This document shows positions 49,174 through 49,476 of a stretch of 64,000 nucleotides of DNA, piece by piece (the stretch's first letter is position 1; every line of letters starts with the position of its first letter). The DNA is taken from IMG/VR virus record IMGVR_UViG_3300034073_002120. The stretch is one strand, 5' to 3'. Source of the DNA: a virus. Taxonomy: Duplodnaviria; Caudoviricetes. The translations under genes were made by a program, and so were the position numbers. Under the pieces are notes generated by a model. The model worked only from the letters and a program-made list of their open reading frames with translations, searched no databases and was not told where the DNA came from.

Positions 49174-49476
49174 TTATTCAAAATTTTTATCTTTTTGGGG
49201 TTTTTGTTCGTCTTTACCCTTTTTCTTTCTTTTTTTAGTGAAAAAACGTATTGTTCTATCACCTTCTGCTATTTTTTGTAGAGCAACTCTTTTTTGTTCC
49301 TCTCTAACAGCTTTTTGTTTTTGTAACCTTCTTTTGGTTGTAGGTTTAACGTATTCTTTTCTTTCTCTTAATTCTAAAAGATGTCCAGATTCATTTACCT
49401 TCTTTTTGAATTTCTTTAAGGCCTTTGCAATGTCTCCATTACGAACCTCTACTGTAACTCTTGATAATCCGCTCAT
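49174..49476 (-). CDS. rpsU: Ribosomal protein bS21 (phage-encoded) with basic C-terminal extension
   Basis: VEVRNGDIAKALKKFKKKVNESGHLLELRERKEYVKPTTKRR matches the bS21 pattern (AL..FK..V...G...ELR.R..Y.KP...RR). Confidence 0.9.
   Translation of the reverse strand: MSGLSRVTVEVRNGDIAKALKKFKKKVNESGHLLELRERKEYVKPTTKRRLQKQKAVREEQKRVALQKIAEGDRTIRFFTKKRKKKGKDEQKPQKDKNFE

Follow-up and report, generated by a model that had tools for sequence, protein, structure and literature searches.

Late genes with Shine-Dalgarno sites and a non-tyrosine bS21 suggest that a T4-like phage re-tunes host ribosomes toward its late messages

The window analysed in this study is a stretch of 64 000 nucleotides from the IMG/VR virus record IMGVR_UViG_3300034073_002120 (Caudoviricetes). 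It has a G+C content of 32%, carries essentially every gene on the minus strand, and comes from a T4-like myovirus of roughly 290 kb. A head module in T4-like order is found on this strand: large terminase (57519..59105; PHROG 2, E 2.7e-48), portal protein (55301..57037; PHROG 213, E 1.3e-59), several genes of unassigned function, among them one of 423 aa (49535..50806, with AGGAG at 50812-50816 upstream), the bS21 gene (49174..49476, 100 aa), an acidic scaffold-like protein between the bS21 and capsid genes (47876..48967, with AGGA at 48978-48981), and a T4 gp23-like major capsid protein (46222..47841; PHROG 138, E 3e-75), the gene of which is 72% identical at the nucleotide level to the capsid gene of phage immuto. 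The sequence-only reading of this DNA had remarked that bS21 is co-directional with the head genes; this is true but uninformative, because essentially all genes of the window share that strand.

The bS21 open reading frame was compared with Pfam and with PDB sequences, aligned with reference proteins, and modelled with AlphaFold2. Against Pfam Ribosomal_S21 a score of 55.7 bits was obtained (E 3.9e-15, cut-off 27), with positions 1-53 of the 55 in profile PF01165 covered, and 24 distinct PDB bS21 sequences from solved ribosomes were matched at E<=1e-3 (9i5v_9, 8.5e-7; E. coli, 1.6e-6; F. johnsoniae 7jil_z, 5.2e-6). Judged by these matches, the gene encodes a genuine bS21.

In Bacteroidia, bS18 and bS6 sequester the anti-Shine-Dalgarno sequence (anti-SD) in the 3' tail of 16S rRNA with the help of bS21, through its Tyr54, which stacks on A1534, and its C-terminal helix, which is short and weakly basic. 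PDB chain 7jil_z, as aligned with the phage protein, supplied the F. johnsoniae reference. K44-P45-T46...V57-R58 of the phage protein aligned without gaps with K40-P41-S42...A53-Y54 of this chain, and MAFFT gave the same result; by the ungapped count from KP[ST] as well as by MAFFT, Arg58 stands in the column of Tyr54, as had been proposed by eye. The basic tail that had been noticed together with this exchange was likewise found, with 42 residues past Arg58 in the phage protein and ~10 in F. johnsoniae. The domain following KPT comprises 54 aa with 21 K+R and 8 D+E (net charge +13), and the domain following KPS in F. johnsoniae ~20 aa (62 residues of the protein seen) with 4 K+R and 1 D+E (+3). 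C-terminal net charge and length separate the bS21 classes; the pI of the domain was rejected as a class marker because it barely does so (10.7 vs 10.0-10.7).

Tyr54 and the less basic C-terminal domain have been described as Bacteroidetes signatures that accompany anti-SD occlusion (Jha 2021, PMC7797042). Among 20 scorable Bacteroidota-labelled bS21 sequences from bacterial genomes, position 54 was Tyr in 18, His in one and Leu in one, the Leu being that of L263, a short MAG contig on which the gene looks phage-type; A, K or R was found in Myxococcota, Gemmatimonadota and Bdellovibrionota. The phage protein has Arg58 in place of the aromatic residue of Bacteroidia-type, anti-SD-sequestering bS21, and its C-terminal domain is neither short nor weakly basic in the sense of PMC7797042, so both Bacteroidia signatures are absent.

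In the AlphaFold2 model (mean pLDDT 79), helices are predicted for residues 16-30, 32-41 and 45-71, and the basic tail (72-100) is predicted to be disordered; a three-helix layout is described for F. johnsoniae bS21 in the legend of Fig. 2 of PMC9976891. Foldseek comparison of the model with the PDB returned nothing significant (weak matches at E 0.4-0.7, the best to mitochondrial small-subunit chains), which is unsurprising for a ribosomal protein with an extended, helical shape. Weak fold matches, a very basic, disordered tail and a location in the head module would also suit a protein that works off the ribosome, as a basic head protein or internal protein that binds nucleic acids and has kept the fold by descent. 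The rRNA-binding core (KP[ST] motif, helices 1-3) is, however, strongly conserved across ~120 homologues, the score lies well over the Pfam cut-off, and bS21 has reportedly been picked up again and again by unrelated phages; we regard such a role as highly improbable.

The N-terminal residues S30 and H32 ('SGHL' motif) are invariant and specific to the family, being missing from the fetched host proteins, and the Arg-type C-terminal region (KPTT...) resembles that of proteobacterial bS21. A scan of bacterial genomes yielded no bS21 with more than 53% identity to the window protein. When the protein was compared by tblastn with 50 697 GenBank phage records, no match was obtained; no cultured family member was found. 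Phage versions of bS18 or bS6, the other anti-SD-sequestering proteins, were not found in the related genomes G001, G002, G011, G009 and G008.

The eight AGGAG sites listed in the sequence-only reading (at 47853, 25923, 23502, 42998 and 41291, and ahead of 50806, 57471 and 1969) were all recovered as described, and 11 strong sites (AGGAG or GGAGG) are present in the window. On the minus strand, AGGAG lies 11 nt before the start of the major capsid gene (47853..47857; conserved in the clade with varying flanking bases), 8 nt before gene 23548..25914 (site at 25923..25927; 788 aa, putatively the sheath protein, as first proposed), 10 nt before gene 23000..23491 (site at 23502..23506; 163 aa, putatively the tube protein, from the same proposal), and 8 nt before gene 41839..42990 (site at 42999..43003), where the late-type motif TATTTATA is located at 43021-43028. 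The same succession is found before gene 57049..57471 (57481..57499, minus strand), with TATTTATA at 57492-57499 followed by AGGAG at 57481-57485. Another AGGAG (41291..41295, minus strand), 11 nt before gene 40164..41279, is situated within upstream coding sequence; no promoter is present, which ties the site to the start codon.

AGGA, GGAG or GAGG was found at -20..-6 for 26 of the 68 window genes, compared with a background of 6.8% ahead of internal ATGs. In the 20 nt next to the start codon, AGGA begins only at -16..-10, and its permutations of the same composition are rarer (AGGA 25, AGAG 7, GAAG 1). At the operon-internal starts 41291, 53701 and 19139 the motif also lies within upstream coding sequence and thus keeps to the start codon rather than to the promoter. 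Its position profile, with a GGA mode at -10/-11, is the same as in related phages that use Shine-Dalgarno sites (SD) on all genes, and AGGAG/AGGA is complementary to the conserved anti-SD. The motif therefore combines anti-SD complementarity, constant spacing to the start codon and enrichment over background with retention on orthologues despite diverged flanks (see below), as is characteristic of an SD.

T4 RegB cleaves GGAG within SD regions, and several of the sites lie ~6-17 nt from late promoter motifs. With this precedent, AGGAG/AGGA might be a signal of another kind: the target of a phage RNA-binding regulator, a GGAG cleavage site for a RegB-like endoribonuclease, or a 5'-end mRNA stabiliser. 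A distance that is fixed to the start codon rather than to the promoter, sites inside coding sequence at the three operon-internal starts, a profile equal to that of true SD sites in related phages, and complementarity to the conserved anti-SD make this explanation distinctly improbable.

Promoter classes were defined by intergenic k-mer enrichment in one complete relative, since pattern counts had proved weak: a loose Bacteroidota promoter pattern, counted per 10 kb, was rejected as non-discriminating in AT-rich DNA, and the count of TTTG-N17-22-TAnnTTTG over the whole window was not above that in shuffles (9 vs 5.5). The four minus-strand matches to the latter pattern are all intergenic and identical in spacing. 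The first enriched motif, TTTG-N20-TTTCGTAT(A/C)TTTG, is of the Bacteroidota -33/-7 type, and the second, TATTAGCTGTA, is a variant belonging to the enriched intergenic set. The third, TATTTATA with its variant ATACTTAT, occurs upstream of structural genes and is common to the whole phage family; on these grounds it was treated as the putative late promoter. In the window, a host-type promoter, TTTG-N20-TATATTTG (4297..4328, minus strand), precedes the SD-less gene 2034..4274, and equivalent promoters are located at 1265-1296, 1535-1566 and 9524-9555.

IMG/VR contigs were collected with the bS21 protein as query, and two genomes from the window's clade, both complete, were read from end to end: G001 (287 455 bp, syntenic with the window at 80-90% DNA identity, with 25 tRNAs and a tmRNA) and G002 (288 673 bp, with terminal repeats). 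The asymmetry claimed for the window was borne out, SD being present on nine of the 16 genes that follow late-type promoters and on none of the nine that follow host-type ones (Fisher p=0.008). Analysis of SD free energy by expression class, which had been proposed as a genome-wide check, gave enrichment in the late genes of both relatives. In G001, 14 of 29 genes with the late motif bear an SD versus three of 44 with a host-type promoter (p=1e-4), and in G002 the corresponding numbers are 14/35 and 1/41 (p=6e-5). Mean anti-SD duplex energies in G001 are -3.0 kcal/mol for late genes, -0.6 kcal/mol for host-type genes and -1.2 kcal/mol for random positions, and the early region of this genome (120-190 kb) has SD on six of 133 genes. 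Only around 50% of the late genes have the motif, strong SD are found on a few genes of host-type transcription units, and genes behind host-type promoters are at SD background (7% by motif and 12% by duplex energy, versus 6-10%). This class-specific pattern is conserved: the SD state is kept on 10 of 11 orthologues in L007 and on 11 of 12 in L018, at 61-88% protein identity and with diverged flanks. Retention is lower further out (6/13 in G011, 3/9 in G008, 0/4 in G009, 0/5 in immuto).

The early promoters, TTTG-N20-TTCGTAT(A/C)TTTG, nearly match those of Flavobacterium phage immuto, and their -7 box, TTTCGTATATTT, hardly differs from the one in vB_FspM_immuto, which was cultured on Flavobacterium sp. 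LMO8. Full -33/-7 matches (TTTG-N18-21-TAnnTTTG) number 15-19 per genome in G001, G002, G011 and G009 and 0 in the related phages G005 and G006, which have SD in all gene classes. A match to the C-terminal sorting domain of the T9SS is clear in G009 and below cut-off, at 21 bits, in G001. The runs that hold this DNA are freshwater, aquatic and subsurface metagenomes. The near match to the promoters of immuto makes the Bacteroidota host assumed in the sequence-only reading the most likely one, and a member of the Bacteroidia, probably of freshwater Flavobacteriia, is likely. Phages of Cellulophaga, a member of the Bacteroidetes, have been reported to be without SD features (bioRxiv 10.1101/2021.04.21.440840), so SD-bearing late genes are unusual in this host group.

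Were the host instead a non-Bacteroidia or an atypical lineage that reads SD natively, the phage bS21 could simply mimic a non-Tyr host protein, and SD could be used on late genes to satisfy a need for high expression. The host has been deduced from promoters only, the Arg-type C-terminal region is of proteobacterial appearance, and G005 and G006 combine a non-aromatic bS21 with SD on 41-48% of all genes and no Bacteroidota-type promoters, all of which would agree with such a host. Phages of SD-reading hosts, however, bear SD in every gene class, whereas host-type-promoter genes remain at background here. Together with the number of full -33/-7 promoters per genome, the near identity of the -7 box to that of immuto, and the almost uniform Tyr54 of Bacteroidota bS21 (fetched set; PMC7797042), this renders a native SD-reading host improbable.

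The bS21 gene itself was confirmed to be SD-less. Its leader, including the intergenic spacer (49477..49534, minus strand), is A/T-rich and has an anti-SD duplex energy of +2.0 kcal/mol, and an SD-less leader is kept in 29 of the 29 fetched Arg-type loci. In the run of head genes from 54368 to 46222, bS21 and one 58-aa ORF are the only SD-less genes. The leader contains the late-variant, promoter-like motif ATACTTAT (49515-49522, minus strand), which is 20-fold enriched in the intergenic DNA of G001. Downstream of bS21 no intrinsic terminator was found, the 206-nt spacer folding no better than shuffles.

The proposal that bS21 is made first was not supported, as the gene lies inside the late head operon behind ATACTTAT and has no host-type promoter. 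In freshwater metatranscriptome contigs from near relatives, the ends and strand of which are unreadable, bS21 is found together with the scaffold gene; contig depths for bS21/scaffold (54-133) are of the order of those for the capsid gene (160-225) and greatly exceed that for the portal gene (15). Since bS21 is seemingly transcribed with the late genes, it has no clear temporal lead, and it looks late-expressed, in line with Chen et al.

These features can be joined in the following mechanism. Because the phage bS21 mRNA has no SD, it would be translatable by ordinary, SD-blind host ribosomes. The product would replace host bS21 on the 30S subunit, keeping the essential N-terminal function and leaving the anti-SD unlocked; with the core kept and the anti-SD not sequestered, it would act like the published Y54A and deltaC mutants. 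Ribosomes modified in this way would read the AGGAG/AGGA sites, which roughly one in two late (virion) genes but hardly any early genes possess, and the output of late proteins would rise, possibly at the cost of SD-less host mRNAs. In F. johnsoniae, ribosomes with bS21 Y54A or deltaC produced 3-5 fold more protein from SD-bearing mRNAs (McNutt 2023, PMC9976891), SD-less translation was nearly normal with Y54A, and the N-terminal part of bS21 was essential (PMC9976891); this 3-5 fold rise in SD-dependent translation makes the mechanism biochemically plausible. We infer incorporation into the ribosome, release of the anti-SD and a translational boost, and to the model as a whole, in which phage bS21 frees the anti-SD and thereby favours SD-bearing late mRNAs, we give slightly less than an even chance. 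That a clade of Flavobacteriia phages turns SD-blind Bacteroidia ribosomes into SD-reading ones by means of a bS21 variant unable to sequester the anti-SD, and so gains a private translation channel mainly for late genes, is offered more tentatively. In the literature searched, no paper connects a phage-borne bS21 with SD on the late genes of Bacteroidota phages.

The class-specific SD pattern is absent from two comparator phages with early promoters of a similar kind. Phage immuto (160 kb) has no bS21 genome-wide, no SD on any of 27 late genes, and SD on 3% of all genes; in G009 (321 kb), which encodes a Tyr54-type bS21 as in Chen et al., SD are found on 0/51 late and 0/31 host-type genes. 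G011 (252 kb, capsid 71% identical) carries a long-tailed Arg-type bS21 elsewhere in its genome and has SD on nine of 30 late genes and one of 19 host-type genes. SD are scarce in relatives whose bS21 combines Arg at position 54 with a short tail: G008 has SD on 5% of its genes genome-wide, and L112, L119, L123 and L154 are at 5-12% (the first three at 10-12%; L120, of the same group, has His).

The capsid tree places the SD-rich clade within a set of SD-poor relatives, which mostly have the short-tailed Arg-type wherever bS21 was found. The Arg thus came before the gain of SD and is not sufficient for it, and the idea that the exchange of Tyr for Arg is itself the switch is not supported, short-tailed Arg relatives (G008, L112, L119, L123, L154) being SD-poor and surrounding the SD-rich clade. 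The number of residues after KP[ST] (25, 27, 36, 41, 54) rises roughly with SD frequency in what is a tiny sample. Several loci are moderately SD-rich with Tyr at this position (L156/G003, L162, L176), and the early promoters of G003 and G004, likewise with Tyr and moderately SD-rich, could not be defined. As a general rule, prediction of SD usage from residue 54 was rejected, with exceptions in both directions among ~90 capsid-related loci. SD richness and a long-tailed Arg-type bS21 occur together in essentially one clade and reflect one or two evolutionary events, so that the correlation has little statistical independence. The observation behind the sequence-only reading is thus confirmed and extended, and its interpretation is supported in part: the SD pattern by gene class, the absence of both Bacteroidia signatures from bS21 and the contrast with comparator phages stand, whereas the causal link, the proposed expression order and a specific role of Arg58 do not follow from these results.

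The same distribution bears on a further explanation, in which phage bS21 is a general factor for ribosome take-over or maintenance and the late SD work by another route or have no link to bS21. The protein might then supplement the host bS21, or take its place, at a late stage of infection, or its divergent N-terminal helix might serve to pick out phage mRNAs, and SD might be read by bS21-poor ribosomes once expression of host rpsU stops. Arg-type bS21 in SD-poor relatives, the phage-specific invariant S30 and H32, co-expression of bS21 with late genes, and published models of phage bS21 that contain no SD role (PMC9723584, PMC9976891, PMC7162821) would all agree with this. It leaves unexplained, however, why conserved SD are limited to the clade in which the C-terminus of bS21 is extended and non-sequestering, why immuto, without a bS21, and G009, with Tyr54, have no such sites, and why bS21, besides the 58-aa ORF, is the only SD-less head gene. 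We consider general take-over somewhat unlikely. Late-gene SD in combination with a non-Tyr bS21 suggest that the phage re-tunes host ribosomes toward its late messages.

To our knowledge, bS21 is the commonest viral ribosomal protein, with no mechanism demonstrated for it. The SD-rich clade offers a concrete and falsifiable one, which extends directly what is known of the Y54A and deltaC variants in F. johnsoniae and for which reporters, strains and a cryo-EM reference are available. If true, it would give the first example in nature of a virus that changes the rule by which its host's ribosomes select mRNAs; it would amount to viral reprogramming of start-site selection, provide a natural tool for turning on SD recognition in Bacteroidia, and possibly explain why this group keeps a conserved anti-SD that lies open to exploitation.

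The closest known phages are those of Chen 2022 (PMC9723584), which are likewise large and T4-like, encode bS21 between the terminase/portal and capsid genes, show high expression of bS21 beside structural genes, and have a predicted Bacteroidota host. The terminase-portal-protease-capsid placement of bS21 in the clades of that study is found in the window as well; bS21 is on the reverse strand in those clades and co-directional here. All 61 of the phage bS21 proteins in that work are aromatic at position 54 (54 Tyr), and anti-SD blocking as in the host was inferred (PMC9723584); the window protein differs in Arg58, in the 42-residue extension and in the SD on late genes. Late substitution into host ribosomes is part of the model of Chen 2022 and is also proposed here.

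The F. johnsoniae Y54A and deltaC variants (PMC7797042, PMC9976891) concern the same ribosomal site and follow the same logic, the anti-SD being freed when Tyr54 or C-terminal contacts are lost. They are laboratory mutants, accompanied by a natural circuit with rpsU as its single SD target, whereas the phage protein would be a natural viral variant acting in trans and serving dozens of SD-bearing late genes. The phage bS21 gene, moreover, is without SD, the opposite of host rpsU.

Among other viruses, Pelagibacter phage HTVC008M is also a T4-like myovirus encoding bS21, and its protein is stated to enter E. coli ribosomes in work cited in PMC9976891; neither SD usage nor gene class is reported to be connected with this or with other viral ribosomal proteins (Mizuno 2019). 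In Francisella, exchange of bS21 paralogues (PMC9578407) likewise changes which mRNAs are translated; that system is cellular and chromosomal, no virus takes part, and the host is not SD-blind. The S21 proteins of huge phages (Al-Shayeb 2020, PMC7162821; Watson 2020, PMC7550191) also have added basic segments, proposed to help in competition for the ribosome, but their extension is N-terminal and both basic and aromatic, whereas that of the window protein is C-terminal. Watson 2020 searched for a connection of phage S21 with ribosome-binding sites without finding one (PMC7550191), whereas a link specific to one gene class is seen here.

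The word TATTTATA occurs 21 times on the coding strand of the window and is situated upstream of structural genes; intergenic DNA, 3.6 kb in total, contains 14 of these copies. Its sites include 57492-57499, 55279-55286, 46128-46135, 43021-43028 and 26314-26321, followed by 22920-22927, 13581-13588, 8234-8241 and 5201-5208, among others. The late-promoter word of T4, TATAAATA, is the reverse complement of TATTTATA. Because TATTTATA is also found in immuto (a cultured Flavobacterium phage lacking bS21), in G009 (a phage with a Tyr54-type bS21), in the phage genome G003 and in the SD-using relatives, it is probably the late promoter of the phage family.

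A near-late motif, TATATTTATT, is situated inside the spacer between the bS21 and scaffold genes (48968-49173), which at 206 nt is unusually long for this genome; no terminator-like hairpin was found in this spacer, and its folding was no better than that of shuffled sequences. Within the head-module gene at 49535-50806 (423 aa), a stretch of about 70 nt (nt ~50310-50396, residues ~116-175) is 78-86% identical to Synechococcus and Prochlorococcus cyanophage genes annotated as hypothetical or as cytidyltransferase, and is also matched by several PHROGs of unknown function. This part of the product looks like a small Cys-containing domain common to distant T4-like phages.

In G011 (L211), a 252 kb relative with a capsid 71% identical, a long-tailed Arg-type bS21 is encoded at 211139-211399, far from the head module; the position of the bS21 gene is therefore not fixed in the wider group. 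The arrangement opposite to that of the window bS21 was encountered in the IMG/VR contigs L042-L045, in which a Tyr54-type bS21 (~9998-10192) is preceded by AGGAG in its own leader (ATAGGAGATTATATTA-ATG) in a phage that is otherwise SD-poor, resembling the SD-based autoregulation of host rpsU. Contig L263 (NZWA01000030.1, 13.6 kb), assigned to a Flavobacteriales MAG, encodes a bS21 that has Leu at position 54 and is of the phage type, not the Bacteroidota type; the contig is probably a phage contig binned together with a possible host.

Clusters of small ORFs (56-123 aa) are located at 11182-12300 and 44320-45450. Several of these ORFs are preceded by a variant host-type promoter (TTTGGAAA ... 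CTATATTAGCTGTA/TTTG), and several have nearly the same leader, which lacks an SD, ends in (C)CTTTAAAA(C/T)ATAAAA(T/G)(A/T/C) and is present in at least five copies. Clusters with such a repeated leader may constitute an early-gene cassette.

In the complete relative G001 (L094-L095), 25 tRNA genes form an array at 158113-165179 together with a tmRNA whose tag peptide is GVNNYALAA.
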